A DNA stretch of 64,000 nt from an uncultured Bacilli bacterium (lineage in GTDB: Bacteria; Bacillota_I; Bacilli_A; RF39; UBA660), in NCBI GenBank assembly GCA_934148875.1, contig CAKPDJ010000001.1:5840-69839 (forward strand), read 5' to 3'. The notes below the pieces were generated by a model. That model made no database searches, was not told where the DNA came from, and saw only the letters and a program-made list of their open reading frames with translations. Made by a program: the position numbers and the translations under genes. Positions within the stretch are counted from its first letter, which is position 1; each line of letters starts with the position of its first letter. Shown one piece after another: positions 26,357 through 63,927 of this stretch.

Positions 26357-27247
26357 TTAATTATCTAGACCAATAATTTCTAAAATTCTATTTAAGTCAT
26401 TTGGATTAACAAAATGAAGTTCAATTCTATTATTTTTTATTTTTACTTTTGTACCAAACTTATCTGATAATTCCTCTTCTATAACTTTGTATTCATTGCG
26501 ATTAGTTTCATGTCTAATCTGAGTATTTTTCTTTTCATAAATATTGTCATGAGAAAGATTTTCTACTTCTCTAACACTTAAGCCATCAACTACTATTTTT
26601 TCTGCTAACTGTTTTACTTTTTCATTATCTTCTATTTTACTTAAAACACGTGCATGGCTCATTGATAATTTATTAGCCATAATCATATCTTTAACTTCTT
26701 CAGGTAATGATAATAAACCTAACATATTAGTAATGTGACTTCTACTTTTTCCTAATCGTTCTGCAAGTTTATCTTGTGTTAATGATAACTCATCTATTAG
26801 TTTCTTGTATGCAATAGCTTCTTCTAATGCATTAAGATTTTCTCTTTGTAGGTTTTCAAGTAAAGCTATTTCCATCATATCTTGGTCTGAAAAATCTCTC
26901 AAAATAGCTGGAATTGTTTCTTTTCCTGCTAAAATTGATGCTTTTACTCTACGTTCTCCTGCTATGATTTCATAACCTTTTATACTTTTTTTGGCAATAA
27001 TTGGCTGGAATACACCATGTTCTTTAATTGAATTAGCCAATTCCTGTAGAGCTGTTTCATCAAAATTTTTTCTTGGCTGGTAAGGATTACTTCTTAATTC
27101 AGATAGTGGTAATTCCACTATTTCTTCATTTGTAGATTCATCCATTATTTTTTCTTCAATTTTTTCATAGTCCATTGGTTCATTATTAAATAATTCCTCT
27201 AGGCCTCTACCTAAAGCTTTTCTTCTAGATGTCTCCATTTCGTGCAA
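26357..27247 (-). CDS. parB: Chromosome partitioning protein ParB/Spo0J
   Basis: ParB box (GRGLEELF) and an HTH (GKSRSHITNMLGLLSLP) that is Spo0J-like. It follows parA. Confidence 0.9.
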   Translation of the reverse strand: MHEMETSRRKALGRGLEELFNNEPMDYEKIEEKIMDESTNEEIVELPLSELRSNPYQPRKNFDETALQELANSIKEHGVFQPIIAKKSIKGYEIIAGERRVKASILAGKETIPAILRDFSDQDMMEIALLENLQRENLNALEEAIAYKKLIDELSLTQDKLAERLGKSRSHITNMLGLLSLPEEVKDMIMANKLSMSHARVLSKIEDNEKVKQLAEKIVVDGLSVREVENLSHDNIYEKKNTQIRHETNRNEYKVIEEELSDKFGTKVKIKNNRIELHFVNPNDLNRILEIIGLDN

Positions 27248-28013
27248 TCACTTCCTTTGCTAAATTTATATAAGCTTCTGTTGCCCTATGTTTTGGGTCA
27301 TAAGCTAATATCGGTTTCCCATGAGAAGGTGCTTCTGTTAATTTTACTAATCTTGGAATTATAGTGTTGTATACTCTTTCTTTAAAAAATCTTCTTATAT
27401 CTTCTACTACCTCTAATCCCAATAATGTTCTTGAATCAAGCATTGTTAGTAAGACACCTTCTATATCTAAATTAGGATTTAGATTTTTCTGTGCTAACAT
27501 TATTGTGTTTAATAATTGAGTAATTCCCTCTAATGCAAAAAATTCACATTGAACTGGTATTATAACTGAATCTGATGCTGTTAATGCATTTGTTGTAATT
27601 AATCCTAATGAAGGAGGACAGTCAATTATAATATAGTTGAATAAGTCTTTAATTGGATCTAAATAAGTTTTTAATTGAGCATTTTTGGCAAATCCTTGAT
27701 TAGTTTTACTTTTTTCAATTAATTCCATATCTAGTCCCGCTAAATTAATGGTTGCTGGTAAAACATATAAATTTTTATATTTTGTTTTAATAATTGCTTC
27801 CGTTATTTCACATTTACCTGTTAATACTTCGTGAACACTGTTTGTTATATCTCCCTTGTTAATTCCTACACCTGTTGTTGTATTACCCTGTGGATCTAAA
27901 TCTATTAATAATACTTTTTTTCCTAAATATGCAAGAGATGCAGAAAGGTTGATACTTGTTGTTGTTTTGCCTACGCCACCTTTTTGATTTACTAATGAAA
28001 TTGTTTTTCCCAT
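27225..28013 (-). CDS. parA: Chromosome partitioning ATPase ParA/Soj
   Basis: Deviant Walker A (KGGVGKTTTSINL). Confidence 0.95.
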   Translation of the reverse strand: MGKTISLVNQKGGVGKTTTSINLSASLAYLGKKVLLIDLDPQGNTTTGVGINKGDITNSVHEVLTGKCEITEAIIKTKYKNLYVLPATINLAGLDMELIEKSKTNQGFAKNAQLKTYLDPIKDLFNYIIIDCPPSLGLITTNALTASDSVIIPVQCEFFALEGITQLLNTIMLAQKNLNPNLDIEGVLLTMLDSRTLLGLEVVEDIRRFFKERVYNTIIPRLVKLTEAPSHGKPILAYDPKHRATEAYINLAKEVIARNGDI

Positions 28014-28080: not shown

Positions 28081-28106
28081 AAAAAAAAGTAGAAGTTCTA
28101 CTTTTT
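28081..28106 (-). terminator. Hairpin terminator downstream of parA/upstream region of noc
   Basis: gtagaa-gt-ttctac stem flanked by an A8 run and a T5 run. Confidence 0.5.
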
Positions 28107-29142
28107 AGTTATTTTTATCTATTTTTATAACTACTTGATAGTTGTTTTCAAAGTCTAAATCTTCAGTTGTTATTTTAATTCCTTTATTTTGAATTTTAGC
28201 TATAACACTCTTGATTTCATTAACAGCATCTTCTACAGTATATATTTTTGTTGTTTTTAATAATCTGTCAATATCATTATAATTATATTCTGGTTTTGGT
28301 TCTTTAATTTCTTTGTTTTCTGTTTCAGGCTCATCATCATCAAATTCAGATAATGCTTCTATTATTTCCTTTGTGTCATCTTTAGGAGCTAGTGATAGTG
28401 GAGGAACATCATCATCTTCGATTTCGTTTGATTTATTAGTTATATCAATTGTTGGTTGTTTTGGTTCACTTACTTCTATTTTTGGACCACTTTCTTCTAC
28501 AATTGTAACGCTATCATTAGTTATTGCTGATGGTTGAGATGTTTCACCTTTTAATTCTCTAATTTCATTATCTAGTTCTCTAACTGTCATACGATTATTG
28601 ATTATTTTTCTTAACATATTAATTTGTTCTTGTGGTGTATCTAAGTTTAATAGACTTCTGGCATGGCGTTCAGAAATTTGATCTTTTAGTAGAGCCTCTT
28701 GAATTTCATCAGGTAATGATAACAATCTCATTTTATTAGCTATTGCAGCTTGAGATTTTCCCATAGTACGACCTAGTTCTTCCTGAGTCATTGAATCTAA
28801 TTCAAGAATTTTTTGATATGTTCTTGCTTCTTCTATTGCTGTTAAATCTTTTCTTTGAAGATTTTCTAAAAGGGCTACTTTTGAAGCTTCCTTGTCGTCT
28901 AAATTACGAATTATTGCAGGAATTTTAGTTAAACCTGCCATTGCTGATGCTTTATATCTTCTTTCACCGGCTATTATTTCGTATTTATCTCCTATTTTTC
29001 TGACAATAATTGGCTGAATTACTCCATGTTCTTTGATTGATGCTGATAATTCTCTTAATGCATCTTCATTAAACACTTCACGTGGTTGAAAACGGTTAGG
29101 AATAATGTCATCTAAATATAGTTCTACTACTTCTCTATCCAT
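28105..29142 (-). CDS. noc: Nucleoid occlusion protein Noc (ParB paralogue), atypical
   Basis: PNRFQPR box and a Noc-type HTH (KSQAAIANKMRLLSLP, versus B. subtilis QSTIANKLRLLKLP). It sits at the noc–soj–spo0J position. It has a short N-terminus with no amphipathic helix and a ~70 aa acidic/Pro-rich insertion before the C-terminal domain. Confidence 0.8.
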   Translation of the reverse strand: MDREVVELYLDDIIPNRFQPREVFNEDALRELSASIKEHGVIQPIIVRKIGDKYEIIAGERRYKASAMAGLTKIPAIIRNLDDKEASKVALLENLQRKDLTAIEEARTYQKILELDSMTQEELGRTMGKSQAAIANKMRLLSLPDEIQEALLKDQISERHARSLLNLDTPQEQINMLRKIINNRMTVRELDNEIRELKGETSQPSAITNDSVTIVEESGPKIEVSEPKQPTIDITNKSNEIEDDDVPPLSLAPKDDTKEIIEALSEFDDDEPETENKEIKEPKPEYNYNDIDRLLKTTKIYTVEDAVNEIKSVIAKIQNKGIKITTEDLDFENNYQVVIKIDKNN

Positions 29143-32296: not shown

Positions 32297-32310
32297 ATTT
32301 CCCGGGAAAT
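32297..32310. promoter_or_regulatory. Noc-binding site (NBS), perfect consensus
   Basis: ATTTCCCGGGAAAT sits inside the 24-bp perfect palindrome 32292-32315 (AAATTATTTCCCGGGAAATAATTT), in the mnmE–small ORF intergenic region. Confidence 0.7.
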
Positions 32311-35938: not shown

Positions 35939-36115
35939 TTTTCCACACTTTCCACAATCTTGTTTATAACTTTATCAACCCTGTGATTATTTATTTTTTT
36001 ATTTTTGTGGAAAAGTGTGATATATTCAATATATATAAGGGTTATAATTGTGGAAAAAATTGTTGATAAGTTGTGAATAAAAAAAAAGATAAATTTTACT
36101 ATTTATTTTTCCACA
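35939..36115. promoter_or_regulatory. oriC upstream DnaA-box cluster (incA-like part of bipartite origin)
   Basis: At least five DnaA-box matches in both orientations: TTTTCCACA at 35939-47, 35948-56 and 36107-15, its reverse complement TGTGGAAAA at 36006-14 and 36049-57, and TGTTGATAA at 36061-69. Confidence 0.8.
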
Positions 36116-36176: not shown

Positions 36177-37586
36177 ATGAATACAAAAATTATTTGGGCT
36201 AATTTTTTAAACGTTATTAAAAATGAATTAAATCCCTTGTCTTTTGAAACTTGGTTTAAAAATACAGAATTATATGAATATAAAGATGGAGTATGTAAGA
36301 TAATAGTTCCAATGGCTATGTATAAAAAGCACTTAGCTACTAAATATTATGAATTAATAGTAGATAATCTTAATAATGTTGTAGGAGATAATGTTGATAT
36401 TGAATTTTATACTAAAGAAGAAATTGATGAACAAGAAAATGAAGACATTGGTAATAATAATATAAATCCTATGTATATCCACAATAATGTTGATAACGTT
36501 ACAGAAAATGTAAGTAATAATAATGTTATTAACAATTTCTGTTCAAATCTTAATAAAAATTATACTTTTGAAAATTTTATAGTAGGGAATACAAATAAAT
36601 TTGCACAAGCTGCAGCATTAGAAGTTGCTGAAAATCCTGGTGTTTTATATAATCCTTTATTTATATATGGAAATAGTGGTCTAGGTAAAACACATTTGAT
36701 GCATGCAATTGGTAATTATATAACTGAACATTCTAATAAAAAGGTTTTATATGTATCAAGTGATCAATTCATTACAGATTTCTTAGGTATAAATAAAAAA
36801 GATGAGCACGGTAAAAACTTTGACTACGTTAGTTATTTTAAAAATAAATATAGAAGTATTGATGTATTAATAGTAGATGATATTCAGTTTTTTCAAGGTG
36901 CGCCGCAAACACAAAATGAATTTTTTAATACATTTACTAAGCTTTATGATGAAAATAAGCAAATAATTATTTCATCAGACCGTTCACCGGATGATTTAAA
37001 ATTACTTGAAGATAGGTTAAGAACTAGATTTTGTTGGGGATTAACGGCAGATATATTTCCACCAGATTTTGATTTAAGAGTAGCTATTATTAAGAAGAAG
37101 ATAATAGGGGAGTCATTAAACAAAAATATACCAGATGATGTGATTGAATATATTGCTTCTAATGTTGGTAGTGATGTTAGACATCTTGAAGGTTCTATTA
37201 CTAGATTGTTGGCATATTCAACTATTATGGGTGGTGCTGAAATAACATTAGATCTAGCAGTAGATGTATTAAAAGATTTTGTAAATAAAGGATACAGTGA
37301 AAAAAACAGTGTTAATAGAATACAAAGAATTGTTGCTGAATATTTTCAGGTATCAGTTGAAGATATGAAATCTAAAAAGAGAAGTGCTAATTTAGCATTT
37401 CCAAGACAAGTAGCAATGTATTTATGCAGGAAACTAACAAATGAATCATTTCCTAAGATAGGAATTGAATTTGGTGGTAAAGATCATTCAACAGTTATGC
37501 ATTCCGTGGAAAAAATAGAAAATGAAATATCAACTAATAAAGAATTAGCTAATATTATAGAAAAATTAAAGAAAGAAATAGTATAG
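36177..37586 (+). CDS. dnaA: Chromosomal replication initiator DnaA
   Basis: AAA+ Walker A (GNSGLGKTHLMHAIGN), C-terminal DNA-binding domain IV and an AGGGGG RBS. Confidence 0.97.
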   Translation: MNTKIIWANFLNVIKNELNPLSFETWFKNTELYEYKDGVCKIIVPMAMYKKHLATKYYELIVDNLNNVVGDNVDIEFYTKEEIDEQENEDIGNNNINPMYIHNNVDNVTENVSNNNVINNFCSNLNKNYTFENFIVGNTNKFAQAAALEVAENPGVLYNPLFIYGNSGLGKTHLMHAIGNYITEHSNKKVLYVSSDQFITDFLGINKKDEHGKNFDYVSYFKNKYRSIDVLIVDDIQFFQGAPQTQNEFFNTFTKLYDENKQIIISSDRSPDDLKLLEDRLRTRFCWGLTADIFPPDFDLRVAIIKKKIIGESLNKNIPDDVIEYIASNVGSDVRHLEGSITRLLAYSTIMGGAEITLDLAVDVLKDFVNKGYSEKNSVNRIQRIVAEYFQVSVEDMKSKKRSANLAFPRQVAMYLCRKLTNESFPKIGIEFGGKDHSTVMHSVEKIENEISTNKELANIIEKLKKEIV

Positions 37587-37588
37587 TG

Positions 37589-37686
37589 TGGATAAAATGT
37601 AAAAATAAAACTTTTTTTCCACAGGTAAAATTTTGAAAAAATATGATAAAATAAGGTTGAATGACAGTTATACACAGTTTCCACAG
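37589..37686. promoter_or_regulatory. oriC dnaA–dnaN intergenic DnaA boxes plus AT-rich unwinding region
   Basis: TGTGGATAA (perfect TTATCCACA on the reverse strand) at ~37589-97, TTTTCCACAG at ~37611-20 and GTTTCCACAG at ~37678-86, followed by an (AATAAT)n AT-rich tract. Confidence 0.75.
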
Positions 37687-38968: not shown

Positions 38969-39421
38969 ATGAAAGAATATGAAGTAAATGATGAAACAAT
39001 GGCTATATTAGGAGTTGATGATAATAACTCAAAGGTTTATGAAAATAATAAGGAATATAAAATAGCTAGTAGTAGTTATGAAGTAATGGATTATTCATGT
39101 CAGTATTTTGGTAGTTCTTATTCAGGTAGAGTAGATGGTAGTAAAAGAATATTAGGAGCAAACTATAAATTACCAATTATAGTAGAAGAAAGTTCAGAAA
39201 TGATTTTTTTTCCTATTACTTCACCTGAAAAAAGTGATTGTATATGGATAGCATTAAAATGGTATAAGAGTGTTGAACAAGTGGGTAATACAACATATAT
39301 AATTCTTAAAAATGGCAAGAAAATAAAGACAATTATGTCAAAAAAATCAATAGAAAATCAAGTTATGAGAGCTTCTAGACTTAATTTAATTTTAAATGAG
39401 AGAAAATTAACTAAAATATAG
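38969..39421 (+). CDS. ComK-family competence transcription factor homologue
   Basis: The conserved ComK blocks are present: YEVN…TMAIL, SCQYFGSSYSGR, LPIIVEE, MIFFPITSP, DCIWIAL and ENQV. GGGGG RBS. Confidence 0.7.
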   Translation: MKEYEVNDETMAILGVDDNNSKVYENNKEYKIASSSYEVMDYSCQYFGSSYSGRVDGSKRILGANYKLPIIVEESSEMIFFPITSPEKSDCIWIALKWYKSVEQVGNTTYIILKNGKKIKTIMSKKSIENQVMRASRLNLILNERKLTKI

Positions 39422-42614: not shown

Positions 42615-45254
42615 ATGGATAATAAAGATGATTTAAATGAATTATTAGCTAGAGCTAGTGAAGAAGATAATAATGCTGATAATGTTGTGGATGATAGTTC
42701 TGATATTAATGATAATAGTTCTCAAGAAGATATTGATATAATTAAATCTAATGGTAATTTTAGTGGATATTTTCATGAAAGAGATAGATTGGATCATAAT
42801 AACATTGTAGATGAAGTTAAAACTTCTTTTATGGAGTATTCAATGAGTGTTATTAAGTCTCGTGCATTACCTGACCTTAGAGATGGTTTAAAGCCTGTTC
42901 ACAGACGTATTTTATGGTCTATGTATGAATCTGGTTATACACCTGATAAACCTCACAGAAAGAGTGCTAAAACAGTCGGAGAAGTTATGGGTAATTATCA
43001 TCCACATGGAGATAGTTCTATTTATGAAGCAATGGTGCGTTTAGCACAAGATTTTAACCAAAGATATATGTTAATTGATGGCCATGGCAATTTTGGTAAT
43101 ATTGAGGGAGATGGCGCAGCAGCAATGCGTTATACTGAGTCAAGACTTGCTAAGATTTCATTGGAATTATTAAGGGATATAAATAAAGATACTGTTGATA
43201 TGGATGACAACTTTGATGCTACAAGAAAAGAACCTAAGGTATTACCTTCTAGATTTCCTAATGTACTTGTTAATGGATCTATGGGTATTGCAGTTGGTAT
43301 GGCTACTAATATTCCACCACATAATTTAGGTGAAGTTATAGATGGTTGTGTTGCATATATTGACAATCCAGATATTGATACTATGGGATTGATGCAGTAT
43401 ATTAAAGGACCAGATTTTCCTACAGGTGGTATTATTTTAGGTAATTCTGGTATTAAAAAGGCTTATGAAACGGGTAGAGGTTCTATTACTATTCGTAGTA
43501 AGGCTACTATTGAAGAAAATGGTAATCATAATCAGATAGTTATTACTGAGGTTCCTTATGGTGTTAATACTATGGAACTTAAAAATAAAGTTGCCGAACT
43601 TGTTCATAATAAAACTATTGAAGGTATTTCTGATTATCATACTGATTTAAAAGACGGTATTAAAATTACTATTACTTTAAAGAAGGATGCTAATGCACAA
43701 GTTATTTTGAATCAGTTATATAAACATACTAATTTTCAAATATCTTATGGTATTATTTTCTTGGTTCTTGATGGACAAACACCTAGAACTTTAGGTATAA
43801 AGGATATTATTTCTAAATATATAGACCATCAAAAAGAAGTAATTATAAGAAGAACTCGTTACGATTTAGGAAAAGCAGAAGAAAGAGTTCATATTTTAGA
43901 GGGATTACGTATAGCGCTTGATAATATTGATGAGGTTGTACATATTATTAGAGCTGCTGAAAGTGATGATGAGGCAAGAAATAATTTGATGTCCAGATTT
44001 GCTTTGGATGATATTCAAGCTAATAGTATTCTAGAAATGAGATTACGTCGTTTAACTGGATTAGAACGTGGAAAAGTTGAAGCTGAGTTAAATGATTTAC
44101 TTGTTAAGATAGCTGATTATAAGGACATTTTAGCTAATGGACAAAGAGTTCTAGATATTATTAAGGAAGAAATGTTGGAAATTAAACGTAAGTATAGTGA
44201 TGATCGTAGGACTCAAATTGATATGACAGCAATTGAATATATTGAAGATGAATCATTAATACCTGTGAATAACATATTAATTACATTAACTAATAAAGGT
44301 TATATTAAGAGAATGCCAGTTGATGCTTATCGTACACAAAATCGTGGTGGAGTTGGAATTAAAGGTATGTCTACTAATGAAGAAGATTTTGTGGAAAAGA
44401 TGATTAATATGGAAACTCATGATTATATCTTCTTCTTTAGTAATAAAGGTAAGGTATATAGGATCAAAGGTTATGAGGTTCCAGAATTTAGCAGACAAAG
44501 TAAAGGACTGCCAATAGTTAATTTATTACCTGTGGAAAAAGGTGAAAGTATTAATTCTATTGTTTCATTGAGTGCTAAAGAACATGAATATAATTACTTT
44601 GTATTTGTTACTAAAAACGGTATTGTTAAACGTACTGATTTAAGTGAATTTGATAATATACGTAGTAGTGGAAAAATAGCAATTACATTAAGAGATGATG
44701 ATGAACTTATTGCTGTACGTAAAACTACTGGGGAAAACGAAGTTATTATTGGTGCTTCTAATGGTAGAATGGTAAGATTTGTGGAAAACGAAATTCGTGT
44801 AATGGGTCGTACTGCTGCTGGTGTTAAGGGAATTGAATTAGGTGATAGTAAAGTTATCGGTGGTGAAATTATTACATCTGATGAACAGGTATTGATAGTT
44901 ACTGAAAAAGGTTATGGTAAAAAAACTCCAATTGATGAATATCGTTTAACTCATCGTGGAAGTAAGGGTGTTAAAGCACTTAACGTAACTGAGAAGAATG
45001 GAATGTTAGTATCATTGAAAGCAGTAACCGGAGAAGAAGACTTAGTTATTATTACAGATAGTGGAATAGTAATGAGAATGTCTATGGATCAAATATCTAC
45101 TTTAGGTAGAGCTACTCAAGGTGTACGTTTAATTAAACTAAAAGATGATCAAAAGGTGGCTACTGTATCAACTATAATAAAAGATGAAACGGATAATGGT
45201 TCAGAAGTTGATAACAGTGAGGTTGTTGAAAATAATGAAAGTGTATCTGAATAG
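42615..45254 (+). CDS. gyrA: DNA gyrase subunit A
   Basis: Active-site region (AAAMRYTE), GyrA-box β-pinwheel repeats and an acidic C-terminal tail. Confidence 0.97.
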   Translation: MDNKDDLNELLARASEEDNNADNVVDDSSDINDNSSQEDIDIIKSNGNFSGYFHERDRLDHNNIVDEVKTSFMEYSMSVIKSRALPDLRDGLKPVHRRILWSMYESGYTPDKPHRKSAKTVGEVMGNYHPHGDSSIYEAMVRLAQDFNQRYMLIDGHGNFGNIEGDGAAAMRYTESRLAKISLELLRDINKDTVDMDDNFDATRKEPKVLPSRFPNVLVNGSMGIAVGMATNIPPHNLGEVIDGCVAYIDNPDIDTMGLMQYIKGPDFPTGGIILGNSGIKKAYETGRGSITIRSKATIEENGNHNQIVITEVPYGVNTMELKNKVAELVHNKTIEGISDYHTDLKDGIKITITLKKDANAQVILNQLYKHTNFQISYGIIFLVLDGQTPRTLGIKDIISKYIDHQKEVIIRRTRYDLGKAEERVHILEGLRIALDNIDEVVHIIRAAESDDEARNNLMSRFALDDIQANSILEMRLRRLTGLERGKVEAELNDLLVKIADYKDILANGQRVLDIIKEEMLEIKRKYSDDRRTQIDMTAIEYIEDESLIPVNNILITLTNKGYIKRMPVDAYRTQNRGGVGIKGMSTNEEDFVEKMINMETHDYIFFFSNKGKVYRIKGYEVPEFSRQSKGLPIVNLLPVEKGESINSIVSLSAKEHEYNYFVFVTKNGIVKRTDLSEFDNIRSSGKIAITLRDDDELIAVRKTTGENEVIIGASNGRMVRFVENEIRVMGRTAAGVKGIELGDSKVIGGEIITSDEQVLIVTEKGYGKKTPIDEYRLTHRGSKGVKALNVTEKNGMLVSLKAVTGEEDLVIITDSGIVMRMSMDQISTLGRATQGVRLIKLKDDQKVATVSTIIKDETDNGSEVDNSEVVENNESVSE

Positions 45255-45265
45255 ATACACTTTTT
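45241..45265 (+). terminator. Hairpin overlapping the gyrA stop codon
   Basis: gtgtatct-gaat-agatacac is a perfect 8-bp stem followed by TTTTT. Confidence 0.55.
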
Positions 45266-45299
45266 AGTTTCACGTGAAACTACTAATTATTTATATTTG

Positions 45300-45339
45300 T
45301 ATAGTTTTCAATTTACTATGTTGAAAACTATATTTTTTT
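45300..45339 (+). terminator. Second terminator-like hairpin after gyrA
   Basis: tatagttttcaa-tttactatg-ttgaaaactata is a perfect 12-bp inverted repeat followed by T7. Confidence 0.55.
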
Positions 45340-45347
45340 ATTAAATT

Positions 45348-45361
45348 ATTTCCCGGGAAAT
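45348..45361. promoter_or_regulatory. Noc-binding site (NBS), perfect consensus
   Basis: ATTTCCCGGGAAAT within the 24-bp palindrome 45343-45366. It lies 12 bp upstream of the first full parS site. Confidence 0.7.
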
Positions 45362-46768
45362 AATTTTCCACAATGTTTCACGTGAAACATTAAACAAGTA
45401 TTTGATTATAGTTATTAAAATTGAAAAATTTTAAATATTAAATTGTATACTGTTAATAAGTAAAATTTTATCAAAATTAAATAGTATTAAGTTTATTGTT
45501 AATAATTATTTAGTTACAATATGTTTAAAAATAATATTTATTATTGTTAGGTTTAGTAATCAATAATTTAATAGATTATTATTTTATGTTTATATTTGTA
45601 TTAGGCGATTGTTTTTTAGTTTCCACAGTGTTTCACGTGAAACATAGATTTCTAATAATATTTTTGTTCTTAAATATTTATTATAGGAGACATTATAAAA
45701 TTTATTATTTACTAAATTTAAATGCATTTGTTATTTTTATTAAAAATTACATTCTATCTAATTTAAATTTTCATAATTTCCACAATGTTTCACGTGAAAC
45801 ATTGATAATTTAATAGTTATTTTTTATTAATCAATCTACAGTTATTATATAATTTTAATTACTATAAGTAATGTTAATATAGTAAACATTATATTGTTGA
45901 TTAGTTTCAATTTTCAATGATGAGTATCATTAAATAAGGTATGTCTATAATAACATAATGAGTTATTATAGATTAACCAATATAGAATATATAATACTTG
46001 AATTTTCCACATGTTTCACGTGAAACATTGTACGAATATTAAAATATAATTTATTATTTATAATAACAATTATTACTAAAGATAAAAGGTTTATTTAATA
46101 TAATTATAGATCAAGCTTTATTGATTAATAAATATTATTGTTTATTATACTTAATAAATTTATTATTAATTGTGTTAATTTGTTTTTTATATTGAATTTA
46201 TATAAATTATAAAATATCCACAATGTTTCACGTGAAACATAGCTTATTTTGTTACATATAATATTAGATTTTTAAAATATTAGTAGTTATTTATTGTATC
46301 AAATATAATTTATAAATTAAATCTAATAAATATAGATGCTTTTTAAATTTATTAAGATGATATGTATTTTATTTATGAAATTTTAGTGTTAATTAATATA
46401 ATTTCCACATGTTTCACGTGAAACATAGATAATTTAACAGTTGTTTTTTAATTAATCTACAATTATTATATAATTTTAATTACTATAAGTAATGTTAATA
46501 TAATAAACATTATATATTGTTGATTAATTTTAAATTTTAATGATAAGTATCATTAAATAAGGTATGTCTATAATAACATAATGAGTTATTATAGATTAAC
46601 CAATATTGAATATATAATACTTGAATTTTCCACATGTTTCACGTGAAACATATGAATATATCTATTAAATAAGATAAATATCTTTAAAAATTAAAAAAAT
46701 AATGTAATGTTTCACGTGAAACATAAAAATAGTTGCTCTTTTTATAAAAATATAATATTATAATTATC

Positions 46769-46847
46769 GTGCAATAAGTATTAATGGAACCAGGTCAGGA
46801 TTGGAAGATAGCAGCCTTAACGTTCTATACTTATGTGCACTTTTTTT
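46769..46847 (+). ncRNA. ffs: Small (4.5S-type) signal recognition particle RNA
   Basis: Conserved domain IV sequence GGAACCAGGTCAGGATTGGAAGATAGCAGCC. The 5' (GTGCAATAAGTA) and 3' (TACTTATGTGCAC) ends pair, and a T7 terminator follows. TATAAT boxes lie at 46751-56 and 46759-64. Confidence 0.7.
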
Positions 46848-46858
46848 ATAGGTGAATT

Positions 46859-47308
46859 ATGAAGGATTATGAAATATTATATATGAAAGAAGCAATAAAA
46901 GAGGCAATGAAAGCTTATAATTCAGGTGAGATACCTGTTGGAGCAGTAATTGTTAAAAACGGTAATATAATTGCTAGAGCACACAATATGAAAGAAACTA
47001 AAATGTGTGCTATTAAGCATGCGGAAATTATTGCCATTGAAAGAGCATGTGCAAAACTTAATAATTGGAGATTAATTGGATGTACTATGTATGTCACAAT
47101 GTTACCTTGTCCTATGTGTGCTAGTGCTATTAATCAATCAAGAATTTGTAATATATATTATGGCACTGTACCTGATTATGCAGAAAAAGAGGCTGTGGAA
47201 AAAATATTGAATGATAAAAATTATGGGTTACCTGTTAAACTTAGTGGTTCAATTTTGGAACAAGATTGTGGAAAACTTTTAAAGCAATTTTTTGTTGAAA
47301 AACGATAA
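46859..47308 (+). CDS. tadA: tRNA-specific adenosine deaminase TadA
   Basis: CDA-fold zinc motifs HAEIIAIE and PCPMCASAI. Confidence 0.9.
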   Translation: MKDYEILYMKEAIKEAMKAYNSGEIPVGAVIVKNGNIIARAHNMKETKMCAIKHAEIIAIERACAKLNNWRLIGCTMYVTMLPCPMCASAINQSRICNIYYGTVPDYAEKEAVEKILNDKNYGLPVKLSGSILEQDCGKLLKQFFVEKR

Positions 47309-47365
47309 TTATAGTTAGAATAAATTAGTTTTAATGGTATAATATAAGTGTTTTGGAGGTGCATT

Positions 47366-49069
47366 ATGTCTTATCAAGCTTTATATAGAAAATATAGACC
47401 ATCTACTTTAGAAGATGTAATTGGCCAAGATGTTGTTATTAAAATTTTAAAAAATGCAATTATTAATAATAAAATTTGCCATGCTTATATGTTTTCAGGA
47501 CCACGTGGGATTGGAAAAACCTCTATTGCGAAAATTTTAGCTAAAACTGTTAACTGTTTAAATTTGGATAATGGTGATGCTTGTGGAAAATGTGAAAATT
47601 GTTTATCTATAAGTAATAATTCTAATCCTGATATTATAGAAATAGATGCGGCTTCTAATAATGGAGTAGATGAGATTCGCGAAATTAAAAGTAAAATTAA
47701 TTTAGTGCCTAATCAATTAAAATATAAAGTGTACATTATTGATGAGGTACATATGTTGTCTATTGGTGCATTTAATGCACTATTAAAAACTTTGGAAGAA
47801 CCACCAGAGCATGTAATTTTTATATTAGCTACAACAGATTTACATAAGGTTCCTGTAACTATCATTTCTAGATGTCAATGTCTTGAATTTCATCGTATTA
47901 GTTGTGATGATATAACAAAAAGACTTAAGTATATATCTGATAAAGAAAATATTAATATTGATGATAGTGTTTTAAAAAGAATAGCTGAATTATCAGATGG
48001 TGGTATGCGTGATGCGGTTGGTATGTTAGATAAGTTAAATGCTTATTCTAATTCAAATATCACAATGGATGATTTTGAAAAAGTAAATGGTATTGTGTCA
48101 TTATCTGAAAGAATAGAATTTTTGGATAATATTATGAATGGTAACATAGATCATGTCATTGAATTTATAGATTACATTTATGATAATGGTAAAGATTTTA
48201 TAGTATTTGTCCAAGATATGATTAATTTATGTAAAGATTTATGTATTTCGTATTATATTGAAAATGAAAAAAAATATGATATTGATTTACTATTATCTTT
48301 TTTAAAATCTTTAAATAATACTTTAAAAAATACAGAATTTTCTTCAAATATTAGAATAACATTAGAAGTTGAGTTGTTATCGTTTATTAATAATCAAATT
48401 CTTAACGATAATAATACAATTATTGATAATAATTCTCAAAAGAAAGAAAAAAATGCTGTTAATGATTTGAAAATTGATAATAATGGAATACAAAACGAAG
48501 TTATTGATAATAGTTATCAACAAATTAATAAAAAAGAGGAAAAAATTATTTCCCGGGAAATAATTAATCCACAATCTGTTGATGATTCAAGTGCTTATCA
48601 GGAAGTAGTTGATATTATTATTAACAATTGTTTTGCTAGAGCCAATAAGAAAAATAAGTTGGACTTTGAAAATAATTGGAATAAGCTTAATGATTATGCT
48701 CTTGATAATGAGTATGGTGCTGTTGCATGTTACATTTCTGATGGCATAGTGAGAGCTGTTGGTGAAAATGAGGTTATTATTTCATTTGCTTATGAATCTA
48801 TGGTTGACAGAGGAGTTAAGATAATTAATAAGATAGAAAATTTATTAGAAAAAATTTATAGTAAACATTATGATGTAGCGTTAATAACGAATGATAAATG
48901 GAACCATGAAAAAGAAATATTTATTTTGAATATGAATAATAAGGTAAAATATGAATATAAAGAATTACCTAATAATAATATAGAAAATAAACCTTCATTA
49001 AAAAGCGATAATTCAATTGCTGAAGAAGCGATTGAATTGTTTGGTGAAGATATGATATCAATAAATTAG
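47366..49069 (+). CDS. dnaX: DNA polymerase III subunit tau/gamma (DnaX)
   Basis: AAA+ clamp-loader N-terminus (YRPSTLEDVIGQD…GPRGIGKTS), a zinc module (CGKCENC) and an SRC motif (TIISRCQ). The ATG at 47366 with a GGAGGTG RBS is preferred over the track's GTG at 47348. The variable linker contains an in-frame NBS palindrome. Confidence 0.9.
   Translation: MSYQALYRKYRPSTLEDVIGQDVVIKILKNAIINNKICHAYMFSGPRGIGKTSIAKILAKTVNCLNLDNGDACGKCENCLSISNNSNPDIIEIDAASNNGVDEIREIKSKINLVPNQLKYKVYIIDEVHMLSIGAFNALLKTLEEPPEHVIFILATTDLHKVPVTIISRCQCLEFHRISCDDITKRLKYISDKENINIDDSVLKRIAELSDGGMRDAVGMLDKLNAYSNSNITMDDFEKVNGIVSLSERIEFLDNIMNGNIDHVIEFIDYIYDNGKDFIVFVQDMINLCKDLCISYYIENEKKYDIDLLLSFLKSLNNTLKNTEFSSNIRITLEVELLSFINNQILNDNNTIIDNNSQKKEKNAVNDLKIDNNGIQNEVIDNSYQQINKKEEKIISREIINPQSVDDSSAYQEVVDIIINNCFARANKKNKLDFENNWNKLNDYALDNEYGAVACYISDGIVRAVGENEVIISFAYESMVDRGVKIINKIENLLEKIYSKHYDVALITNDKWNHEKEIFILNMNNKVKYEYKELPNNNIENKPSLKSDNSIAEEAIELFGEDMISIN
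48548..48561. promoter_or_regulatory. Noc-binding site (NBS) embedded in the dnaX coding sequence
   Basis: ATTTCCCGGGAAAT within the 22-bp palindrome 48544-48565. It translates as …KIISREII… in the poorly conserved DnaX linker and is followed by TTAATCCACAAT. Confidence 0.65.
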
Positions 49070-60814: not shown

Positions 60815-61035
60815 CATAAATGTTTTGAAGGAAAGAGTTATTGGAAATCTATTTAAGAGAGTCTAGTTAGGTGAAAGTAGATATAGAAGAACAATAATAA
60901 ATGGTTCCGGAGCTAATAAATTATGTTTATGATTTATTCGTTACTCGCGTTAAGAGTTTAAGTGTATAGTGTTATGCTATAAATTAAGGTGGTACCGCGA
61001 TTATTCGTCCTTATGGAAGAATAGTCGTTTTTTTT
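60815..61035 (+). promoter_or_regulatory. T-box riboswitch leader (putatively Met-specific) with intrinsic terminator
   Basis: Promoter: -35 TTGAAT at 60780-85 and an extended -10 TGtTATAAT at 60800-08. Conserved T-box sequence AAATTAAGGTGGTACCGCG at 60981-99 overlaps the 5' arm of the terminator (CGATTATTC…GAATAGTCG + T8). A candidate AUG specifier lies at 60901-03. The downstream operon is dut–metG. Confidence 0.7.
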
Positions 61036-63168: not shown

Positions 63169-63927
63169 ATGTTTATAGATACTCATATGCACATTGGGGA
63201 TGATTTTGGGGTAGGACCAGATTTATATGTTAAAAATGCAAATGATGCTGGTGTCAAAGTGTTGATTGCTTCTTTTTGTGAGAAAGATGATATTATGTTA
63301 TCCACTAAATTTGTGGAAAAATATGAAAATTTATATGCCTGTATTGGTTATCATCCAGAGGTTAGTAACAAAATTGTGGAAAAAGATTATGAAATAATAG
63401 AAGAACTGGTTAAAAATAATCCTAAAATTGTAGCAATTGGGGAAATCGGACTTGATTATCATTGGGATAAGGATAATAAAAAACAACAGAGAGAGGTATT
63501 TTGTAGACAATTAGAGATAGCAGAGAAATTAAAAGTGCCGGTCGTTATTCACAGTCGTGATTCAATTAATGAAACTTATGAAATTCTTAGCAAATATAAA
63601 GTTCGTGGCGTTATTCATTGTTTTAGTGGTAGTTTAGAAATGGCTAAAAAATTTATTGGTTTAGGTTTCTTACTTGGTATTGGTGGAGTAGTGACTTTTA
63701 AAAATAGTAAGTTATTTGAAGTAATAGAAAAATTAGAACTTACTAACATTGTCTTAGAAACAGATAGTCCTTATTTAACTCCAGAACCAAATAGAGGAAA
63801 AATAAATGAATCTAGTAACATTCCGTATATTGCTCAAAAAATAGCAGAAATTAAAAAAGTTTCACTTGATGAAGTACGAGATATAACTACAAGAAATGCT
63901 GCTTTGTTATTTGACTTAGATAATTAG
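63169..63927 (+). CDS. tatD: TatD-family metal-dependent DNase/hydrolase (YabD)
   Basis: MFIDTHMHIGDDF metal-binding start. It follows metG, as in Bacillus. Confidence 0.9.
   Translation: MFIDTHMHIGDDFGVGPDLYVKNANDAGVKVLIASFCEKDDIMLSTKFVEKYENLYACIGYHPEVSNKIVEKDYEIIEELVKNNPKIVAIGEIGLDYHWDKDNKKQQREVFCRQLEIAEKLKVPVVIHSRDSINETYEILSKYKVRGVIHCFSGSLEMAKKFIGLGFLLGIGGVVTFKNSKLFEVIEKLELTNIVLETDSPYLTPEPNRGKINESSNIPYIAQKIAEIKKVSLDEVRDITTRNAALLFDLDN

Follow-up and report, generated by a model that had tools for sequence, protein, structure and literature searches.

Replication initiation and segregation proteins probably wired together on the DNA itself at a parS array of an uncultured Bacilli bacterium

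The parS array and the boxes that adjoin it

The window analysed here is a 64-kb stretch of the low-GC genome (~26%) of an uncultured member of the Bacilli; it represents the replication-origin region, in which the GC skew changes sign at ~36 kb, at dnaA. At ~9 kb from dnaA, the non-coding stretch between gyrA and the gene for the small signal recognition particle (SRP) RNA holds an array of eight perfect copies of the partition site parS, TGTTTCACGTGAAACA, located between coordinates 45374 and 46723, together with a degenerate ninth copy; shuffled sequences give 0.01 matches. A 9-mer of the form [T/A/G]T[T/A]TCCACA, which resembles the binding site (box) of the initiator protein DnaA (consensus TTWTNCACA), lies on the + strand ahead of seven of these eight perfect copies, and the gap between this 9-mer and parS is 1 bp in four cases and 0 bp in three. 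The elements of the array are as follows, L001 and L007 being two loci of close relatives:

45266..45281: degenerate parS AGTTTCACGTGAAACT, directly past the gyrA stop codon and a terminator hairpin; without a box
45347..45362: perfect 16-mer Noc-binding site TATTTCCCGGGAAATA, 14-mer core at 45348-45361; 1 bp before box 1
45364..45372, + strand: DnaA box 1, TTTTCCACA, strict consensus; gap of 1 bp
45374..45389: parS 1, perfect
45619..45627, + strand: DnaA box 2, GTTTCCACA, mismatch at position 1; gap of 1 bp
45629..45644: parS 2, perfect
45776..45784, + strand: DnaA box 3, ATTTCCACA; gap of 1 bp
45786..45801: parS 3, perfect
46003..46011, + strand: DnaA box 4, TTTTCCACA, strict consensus; gap of 0 bp
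46012..46027: parS 4, perfect
46214..46222, + strand: DnaA box 5, ATATCCACA; gap of 1 bp
46224..46239: parS 5, perfect
46401..46409, + strand: DnaA box 6, ATTTCCACA; gap of 0 bp; recent duplicate of unit 3
46410..46425: parS 6, perfect
46626..46634, + strand: DnaA box 7, TTTTCCACA, strict consensus; gap of 0 bp; recent duplicate of unit 4
46635..46650: parS 7, perfect
46708..46723: parS 8, perfect, without a box; in L001 and L007 the unit orthologous to this last one has TTTTCCACA-A

All seven boxes are on the + strand and on the gyrA-proximal side of their own parS. Neighbouring perfect parS sites are 73-255 bp apart, and all parS seen in the window are confined to this single 1.5-kb non-coding array. 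Its sites have the characters of chromosomal parS, being 16-bp palindromes (TGTTNCACGTGNAACA) that are origin-proximal and accompanied by spo0J and soj (26357-28013). This direct reading confirmed the observation, made in the first-pass annotation of the window, that a 9-mer on one and the same strand precedes seven of the eight perfect sites at 0-1 bp, as well as the coordinates given for it with one correction: 45620 is the start of an 8-mer, the 9-mer starting at 45619. Agreement with TTWTNCACA proved less complete than had been claimed, since three of the seven flanks are exact and the other four deviate by one mismatch, at position 1 (A or G). Boxes with such a position-1 mismatch (CTTTCCACA and GTTTCCACA) are present in the organism's own oriC too, and on the + strand of the whole window TTTCCACA is confined to the oriC clusters and the array.

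The juxtaposition of box and parS is not random. Based on the background of T[AT]TCCACA (1.6e-4 per position per strand) and 32 opportunities, 0.005 box-parS juxtapositions are expected, and the probability of seven or more is 1.5e-20. Because the units at 45769-46030 and 46393-46651 are a recent duplication (93-96% identical) of a 623-bp block of two units, the array counts as five independent composites instead of seven, for which P is about 6e-15. Compared in pairs, these five have an identity of 0.39 over the 48 nt to the left of the core and of 0.43 over the 48 nt to its right, the background for random 48-mers from the same spacer being 0.365; over the 11 nt that precede parS the identity is 0.72, and within parS it is 1.0. 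With the spacers near background and both box and parS kept, the units are therefore old or independently arisen, and the 26-bp core alone has been retained. It was further observed that every parS half-site, TGTTTCACG, is two mismatches away from TTWTNCACA, so that parS can formally be regarded as two weak DnaA boxes in inverted orientation.

The genes and other features of the window that bear on the array are the following:

26357..27247, - strand: spo0J/parB, with ParB_N, HTH_ParB and ParB_C domains
27225..28013, - strand: soj/parA
28105..29142, - strand: noc-like ParB paralogue of 345 aa, longer than the usual Noc (TIGR04285, 288 bits, below the 315-bit cut-off)
35939..36115: oriC DnaA-box cluster upstream of dnaA, mostly TTTTCCACA
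36177-37586, + strand: dnaA (Pfam Bac_DnaA_C, E = 1e-32)
37587..37685: oriC DnaA-box cluster between dnaA and dnaN
42615-45254: gyrA, preceding the 1.5-kb non-coding stretch (16% GC) that holds the array
44264..44788, - strand: four strict boxes in the 3' end (last 1 kb) of gyrA, at 44264, 44390, 44531 and 44780
46765..46846, + strand: small SRP RNA gene, right-hand boundary of the parS array
47194..47590, - strand: three TTTTCCACA boxes, in tadA (47194, 47267) and the 5' end of dnaX (47582)

To the left of dnaA lie rnpA, yidC, jag, mnmE, mnmG, rsmG, the noc-like gene, soj and spo0J, the partition and occlusion genes being in the usual rsmG-noc-soj-spo0J order; on the right, dnaA is followed by dnaN, a ComK-family gene, recF, gyrB, gyrA, the non-coding stretch, the SRP RNA gene, tadA and dnaX. 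Other functions of the array were considered and rejected: it is not a second origin, as the GC skew switches at dnaA rather than at the array; its promoter-like matches are as frequent as in shuffled sequences (24 versus 24.7); and it contains no convincing open reading frame (ORF). Rfam families are represented in the array by nothing but the SRP RNA at its edge. The ComK-family ORF (38969-39421; Pfam PF06338, E = 4e-40), located between dnaN and recF, is syntenic in all relatives examined, with the copy of L001 cut to 93 aa; a competence regulator is surprising for a genome-reduced, uncultured gut lineage. A T-box leader (60816-61015; Rfam RF00230, 96 bits) is present upstream of the ORF at 61034.

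The two oriC clusters mentioned in the first-pass annotation as sharing the 9-mer type are real and flank dnaA at the GC-skew switch. Own oriC boxes comprise five copies of TTTTCCACA and one each of TTATCCACA, TTATACACA and TTATTCACA, several of them are followed by A, and the oriC boxes of relatives are similar. Across lineages, no covariation was found between the box variants of oriC and array: oriC has mostly TTTTCCACA throughout, while the array boxes vary. Domain IV of the DnaA protein aligns with that of B. subtilis (8btg) and E. coli (1j1v), with GGxDH[S/T]TVxH conserved; its base-contacting residues we take to be those of the 1J1V work.

Boxes also occur in the coding DNA on both sides of the array, so that the region 44264-47590 contains seven in the array (1.27 kb) and seven in gyrA, tadA and dnaX. 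In the last three gyrA boxes (44390, 44531, 44780) the coding strand is TGTGGAAAA, which translates as V-E-K/N by way of the rare valine codon GTG, and most of the seven boxes in gyrA, tadA and dnaX have this reading; two or more of the gyrA boxes are kept in L001, L007 and the further relatives L016, L003 and L005. GTG accounts for 5.7% of the valine codons of the window overall. In V-E-K/N motifs it is the valine codon of 7 out of 11 on the right-hand side of oriC and of none of six on the left, and six of these seven GTG-using motifs come after a T, thereby forming TGTGGAAAA. This GTG bias points to selection on the DNA motif itself. Further coding-DNA boxes of this reading were observed at 63312-63383, within a second small box cluster (63312-63553).

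Distribution of the composite among relatives and in other genomes

The nearest relatives of the bacterium according to GyrA are metagenome-assembled genomes (MAGs) labelled 'uncultured Bacilli bacterium', 'Tenericutes', 'Mycoplasma sp. CAG:776', 'Clostridium sp. CAG:710' and 'Candidatus Scybalousia'. GyrA identity with Ca. (Allo)scybalousia is 85%; NCBI equates Candidatus Scybalousia with Ca. Alloscybalousia, Bacilli incertae sedis. Orthologous gyrA-tadA spacers were fetched by exact GyrA look-ups, for which the motif was not used. At 96-97% GyrA identity (L001 and L011-L013, 96%; L007-L009, 97%), four of four perfect parS are preceded at 0-1 bp by TTATCCACA, TTATTCACA or TTTTCCACA. Three to five sites of L137 and L138 (90%) have TTTTCCACA or TTATGCACA, and in L016 (88%) five of seven parS-like sites are preceded by TTATACACA-A or TTATGCACA-A. 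From lineage to lineage the 9-mer changes where TTWTNCACA has its W (position 3) and its N (position 5), and T2, T4 and CACA are constant. An array-wide half-site change was also noticed: L016, L162, L149, L151, L114 and L131 have TGTTCCACGTGGAACA or mixed T/C, A/G half-sites in place of TGTTTCACGTGAAACA.

Leaving aside the first unit, the arrays of L001 and L007 are ~97% identical, a value too high for their substitution-rate comparison to be informative apart from one replaced flank. The left flank of unit 1 has been exchanged for unrelated sequence, one version reading TTATTCACA-A-parS and the other carrying a Noc-binding site (NBS) as NBS-AAT-TTATCCACA-parS, and the box is retained in both. 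Copy number differs even between close strains (eight perfect sites in the window, four in L001 and L007; seven sites in L137, five in L138): the centromere array is evolutionarily dynamic.

About 60 arrays were oriented by tblastn against gyrA and tadA. The fixed orientation described by the first-pass annotation is uniform within the window's array and does not extend across clades, the box side being gyrA-proximal in the window and many lineages and tadA-proximal in others (e.g. L027, L028, L050, L125 and L126); an orientation set by oriC or the direction of replication is therefore false across these arrays. When the loci are ordered by a neighbour-joining tree of the GyrA C-terminus, those with boxes fall mostly beside others that have the same box side. 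The window's group consists of 13 loci (GyrA C-terminal identity of at least 77%), 11 of which have gyrA-proximal boxes; in the two box-less members, the lineages of L003 and L005, the boxes seem to have been lost. Elsewhere the tree order shows runs of 'proximal' loci and separate runs of 'distal' ones. Because loci with the same box side group together while the sides differ between clades, orientation is stably inherited yet untied to replication direction.

A larger motif-blind pool was composed of 80 further loci from a GyrA-based scan of metagenome contigs (69-90% identity), the GyrA-retrieved relatives and the window, together holding 236 unique parS. A strict box that points its CACA end at parS was found 8 times at gap 0 and 18 times at gap 1, where 0.10 is expected per bin; the total for gaps of 0-1 bp is 26 of 236 parS versus 0.2 expected, and the wider gaps give 1, 1, 0 and 0. 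A second, weaker geometry, with the TT end facing parS at 1-4 bp, accounts for nine cases, among them parS-N4-TTTTCCACA in the box-poor L187, L189 and L195, where the box lies 3-4 bp past parS. In L203 (7638-8568), L149 and L162, TTATCCACA, TTATCAACA or TTATTAACA is located at 1-3 bp from parS, the gap in L203 being 2-3 bp. Unsupervised 6-mer enrichment in the 12-nt flanks returned the box-derived CCACAA (14x), TCCACA (11x) and TTTCCA (8x); these are outranked by CATACT, which stems from the gyrA terminator hairpin common to strains.

A motif-directed scan of a genome collection, with one genome per species and the pattern TGTTYCACGTGRAACA-N0-1-TGTGNAWAA (position 5 free), gave at least 119 stretches. 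About half of the matches listed are low-GC Bacilli MAGs of the same group, often with 2-5 composites per array. In the 115 unique low-GC composites among these matches, position 5 is C in 48%, as compared to 8.7% in the adjacent spacers (chi-square P = 7e-51), and position 3 is A in 83%. All four bases occur at position 5 among the composites listed, T occupies position 2 in virtually all of them, and the canonical TTATCCACA is the commonest variant of the 180 unique composites. The composites listed thus follow the affinity hierarchy of DnaA, with TTATCCACA favoured and positions 3 and 5 tolerant. Judged from these sequences, the position preferences are as expected of DnaA, and they are predicted by neither base composition nor the ParB half-site. 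The boxes are one-sided: no locus among the matches listed has strict boxes on both sides of parS, and at the sites of the scanned loci that the pattern did not match, a one-mismatch box was found in 40 of 187 cases on the box side of the array and in 3 of 187 on the opposite side. G precedes the box in 42% of the composites listed and the gap base is mostly A, giving the extended form aGTTATNCACAa; C6-to-A variants (TTATCAACA, TTATTAACA) are frequent.

Several matches fall outside the Bacilli. Three copies of TTATCCACA-G-parS were observed in a Pseudomonadota MAG (L052 at 1709 and 4114; L075 at 7381) and two composites in a member of the Terriglobia (L025 at 2657 and 2771), so that in unrelated phyla TTATCCACA-G-parS or TTTT[C/G]CACA-G-parS lies near mnmG, rsmG or soj. 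A Saccharibacteria MAG (L074, 5147-6034), a genome of the candidate phyla radiation, carries a tandem array with a 56-bp period and at least 13 parS, each preceded at gap 0 by the DnaA-box-like [C/T]TATTCA[C/T]A. Position 5 is C in 52% of the composites in those loci among the matches listed that are not low-GC, versus a background of 22%. Composites outside the Bacilli may represent a general element or the chance adjacency of real boxes in origin regions.

The 14-mer NBS of B. subtilis is ATTTCCCGGGAAAT (Jalal et al. 2020, PMC7383237). The window contains four perfect copies, at 32297, 45348, 48548 and 53454, where 0.16 is expected in 64 kb, and the second of these forms a module of 43 contiguous bp with the first unit of the array (NBS 45347-45362, A, box 45364-45372, A, parS 45374-45389). 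In relatives the NBS-box-parS module is present in 2-5 copies per array (L137 at 8276, 8760 and 9126; L016 at 12936, 13255 and 13541; L033 at 4025, 4422 and 4841; also L123, L060, L096, L128, L054 and L105), while most composites listed have no NBS. The NBS-box gap drifts between 1 and 5 bp and the box-parS gap stays at 0-1 bp; the tight constraint therefore lies between box and parS.

Proposed role of the boxes and competing explanations

The 9-mer beside parS is probably a selected DnaA-binding site, as predicted from its agreement with the dominant oriC variant TTTTCCACA, its variation within the bounds of the consensus, the preference for the canonical form, its one-sidedness and its persistence next to spacers that can no longer be aligned; in this respect the suggestion of the first-pass annotation is upheld. 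From these observations we infer that the boxes would be occupied by DnaA, together with ParB, and that this would have a regulatory outcome.

The gyrA-SRP RNA spacer would then be both a centromere, i.e. the loading array of ParB (Spo0J), and an oriC-proximal DnaA-box cluster. The distance of 8.5-9.5 bp between the centres of the box and the near half-site would separate domain IV of DnaA from the nearer helix-turn-helix of ParB by about one turn of the DNA helix, with both proteins on roughly the same face of the DNA and at contact distance, a geometry that would fit direct contact or direct competition. Each unit could hold one initiator molecule within the ParB/Soj partition complex, and DnaA at these origin-proximal, high-affinity boxes would be exposed to the Soj switch that is regulated by Spo0J. 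The box capacity would double straight after initiation. The consequence that we favour is a negative control of initiation that would be coupled to segregation and resemble that of the DnaA-box clusters (DBCs) of B. subtilis, and two functions that cooperate genetically in B. subtilis, DnaA-box clusters and Spo0J/Soj, would be merged in cis. Taken by itself, a role in the DBC-like restraint of initiation is possible though short of likely, and for the complete statement, a selected DnaA box beside each parS plus DBC-like initiation control coupled to segregation, we see an even chance of being correct.

Several points weigh against this proposal. The boxes inside the array are 150-250 bp apart, looser than in the cooperative clusters of oriC, datA or B. 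subtilis; four of the seven are off consensus at position 1; and seven boxes are a small titration capacity. L003 (GyrA 89%) and L005 (85%) have parS arrays without boxes, as do most lineages at 69-79% GyrA identity, with up to 11 parS; the composite is hence clade-restricted and dispensable. Orientation relative to oriC flips between clades. The gap of 0-1 bp could equally be compatible with mutual exclusion as with co-binding, and short-tract gene conversion between units could contribute to the uniformity of the flanks within an array.

A wider version of the proposal brings DnaA, ParB and, where an NBS is present, Noc side by side on a module of 26-43 bp (NBS, 1-5 bp, box, 0-1 bp, parS) as a dedicated nucleoprotein unit, thereby physically coupling initiation, segregation and nucleoid occlusion, and has the box/parS element recurrent, having arisen or persisted in several phyla; we consider it rather doubtful.

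The main functional rival, which is closer to the Caulobacter model, is that DnaA is not titrated at the box and instead gates or directs ParB. Bound DnaA might act as a one-sided roadblock, so that CTP-ParB clamps would exit each parS in a single direction and be trapped between units, or DnaA-ATP might spread from the box and occlude the half-site until its level falls after initiation; ParB loading would then be freed and segregation licensed, as proposed for Caulobacter. The strict gap of 0-1 bp and the uniform orientation within every array are in favour of gating. So is the sequence of the near half-site TGTTTCACG, which is two mismatches off TTWTNCACA, is oriented as the flanking box and starts 9-10 bp from it; because it is near-consensus and in the same orientation, a strong box could nucleate DnaA-ATP onto parS. 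This start-to-start distance, however, differs from the 11-bp spacing of the DnaA arrays in E. coli oriC, and since the box orientation relative to oriC is not the same in all clades, there is no conserved direction of spreading. According to the passages of a review that deal with Caulobacter (PMC6399470), DnaA acts there at DnaA boxes of parS and enables segregation. DNA-bound roadblocks are reported to affect ParB spreading in vitro, but ParB can reportedly bypass them via dimer-dimer recruitment (PMC9242446). Overall, we regard gating as unlikely.

That the flank has no function of its own and hitch-hikes, being carried along with parS as units duplicate and convert one another over short tracts, a relic as the first-pass annotation had allowed for, is quite improbable. 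The arrays are certainly dynamic: a 623-bp two-unit block has been duplicated in the window, copy number is unlike in close relatives (eight in the window versus four in L001 and L007, seven in L137 versus five in L138), the Saccharibacteria array of L074 is a 56-bp tandem repeat, and the box-less L151, L205 and L162 have recently duplicated units whose flanks are uniform but arbitrary. Hitch-hiking predicts such lineage-specific arbitrary flanks, whereas in dozens of lineages the flank stays within TTWTNCACA; among the composites listed, C at the free position 5 is 5.5-fold over background and no variant is commoner than the canonical TTATCCACA. The independent units of the window are alike only in the 26-bp core, the box of unit 1 was kept in L001 and L007 when its flank was replaced, and the 9-mer recurs in other geometries (parS-N4-TTTTCCACA in L187, L189 and L195; a gap of 2-3 bp in L203). 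This conservation across clades, combined with spacers at background identity, speaks against a relic of duplication, and the comparative data already largely refute hitch-hiking, with short-tract conversion as a possible contributor.

It is very improbable that the flank is an auxiliary recognition element, either a third, direct half-site for ParB, as the first-pass annotation had also envisaged, or an element for Noc, that extends the footprint of a ParB-family protein. TTATTCACA agrees with the half-site TGTTTCACG at six of nine positions, an NBS is often located just upstream, and the palindrome is extended by A-1/T+1, often as CAA/TTG. The flank, however, is one-sided beside a perfect palindrome that is bound by a symmetric dimer. 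Its positions 2-3 are TA or TT and never GT, which is invariant in the eight perfect parS of the window; position 5 takes the purines A and G, not seen in the parS-like sites examined (TGTT[T/C]CAC); and the TTTCCAC of the window needs a 1-nt insertion to align with TTTCAC. An extended parS, recognisable by a half-site TGTT[T/C]CAC with G at position 2 and without indels, was accordingly not found. In addition, most composites have no NBS, the NBS-box spacing is variable, and the parS arrays of many relatives work without the flank.

Least probable is a different DNA-binding protein of the lineage that recognises a DnaA-box-like sequence beside parS: it could account for the preceding G, the extended aGTTATNCACAa and the frequent TTATCAACA and TTATTAACA, but the preferences in the core agree with the established hierarchy of DnaA boxes and with the own oriC boxes, several oriC boxes are followed by A too, and no candidate protein was found.

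Relation to known systems

The coordination of initiation with segregation is a long-standing question, and the known links are made by proteins (Soj acting on DnaA, Spo0J on Soj) or by loosely co-located sites (Caulobacter). A high-affinity box fused at 0-1 bp to a ParB loading site, conserved and repeated within an array, would be a hard-wired cis version of such a link; as far as the sequences tell, the proteins of initiation and segregation are probably tied to each other on the DNA. With the gap fixed, DnaA and ParB would have to touch or to compete directly. The composite, 26 bp long or 43 bp with the Noc site, is a compact substrate on which co-binding, exclusion, loading of the ParB clamp and roadblock effects can be studied, and the occurrence of box-bearing and box-less relatives in nature allows a ready comparison. 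The uncultured, genome-reduced gut Bacilli have a rearranged origin region, in which the parS of the window form one array.

In the chromosomes of B. subtilis, DBCs restrain initiation, synergistically with Spo0J/Soj (Okumura et al. 2012, PMC3245932). The array resembles them in having origin-proximal boxes outside oriC in a Firmicute with Soj, Spo0J and Noc. It differs in that its boxes are isolated, 150-250 bp apart instead of tightly clustered, and are fused with parS as a composite, whereas the DBCs and parS sites of B. subtilis are, as far as is known, separate loci. The datA locus of E. coli, in which closely spaced boxes and an IHF site promote DnaA-ATP hydrolysis, shares with the array the general idea alone, i.e. 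origin-proximal DnaA boxes outside oriC. No closely spaced pair of boxes was seen inside the array, in which no search for an IHF or HU site was made, and we know of no ParABS system in E. coli; a datA-like titration role, as put forward in the first-pass annotation, is pure conjecture.

With the canonical Firmicutes the window has in common the universal parS TGTTNCACGTGNAACA, the B. subtilis NBS ATTTCCCGGGAAAT and the rsmG-noc-soj-spo0J order. The parS sites of B. subtilis are scattered over the origin domain; here they form one 1.5-kb array, in which NBS, box and parS are contiguous over 43 bp. Literature searches turned up neither an array of DnaA-box/parS composites with fixed geometry nor an NBS-box-parS module.

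The rctA/parS2 locus on chromosome 2 of Vibrio cholerae is bound by ParB2 and the initiator RctB (PMC3141006, PMC3688505; review PMC6399470), and direct ParB-DnaA interactions have been reported in Deinococcus and Vibrio (PMC13438810). The Vibrio locus is similar in that a centromere doubles as an initiator platform, with cross-talk between replication and segregation in cis; it is different in that RctB is unrelated to DnaA and in being a single locus by a plasmid-like origin and not an array of fixed geometry.

A further likeness is with Caulobacter crescentus, in which DnaA binds DnaA boxes in the parS region near the origin (Mera, Kalogeraki & Shapiro 2014, as described in the review PMC6399470). 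Initiator motifs lie within an origin-near parS region in both cases, linking initiation and segregation via DNA sites, and in the window a box adjoins seven of the eight parS. Set against the description in that review, the present case concerns Bacilli rather than an alphaproteobacterium and has a box-parS gap of 0-1 bp with the CACA end toward parS; the unit is moreover repeated 3-7 times per array, often with a Noc site. An initiator at the centromere is known from Caulobacter (DnaA) and Vibrio (RctB).

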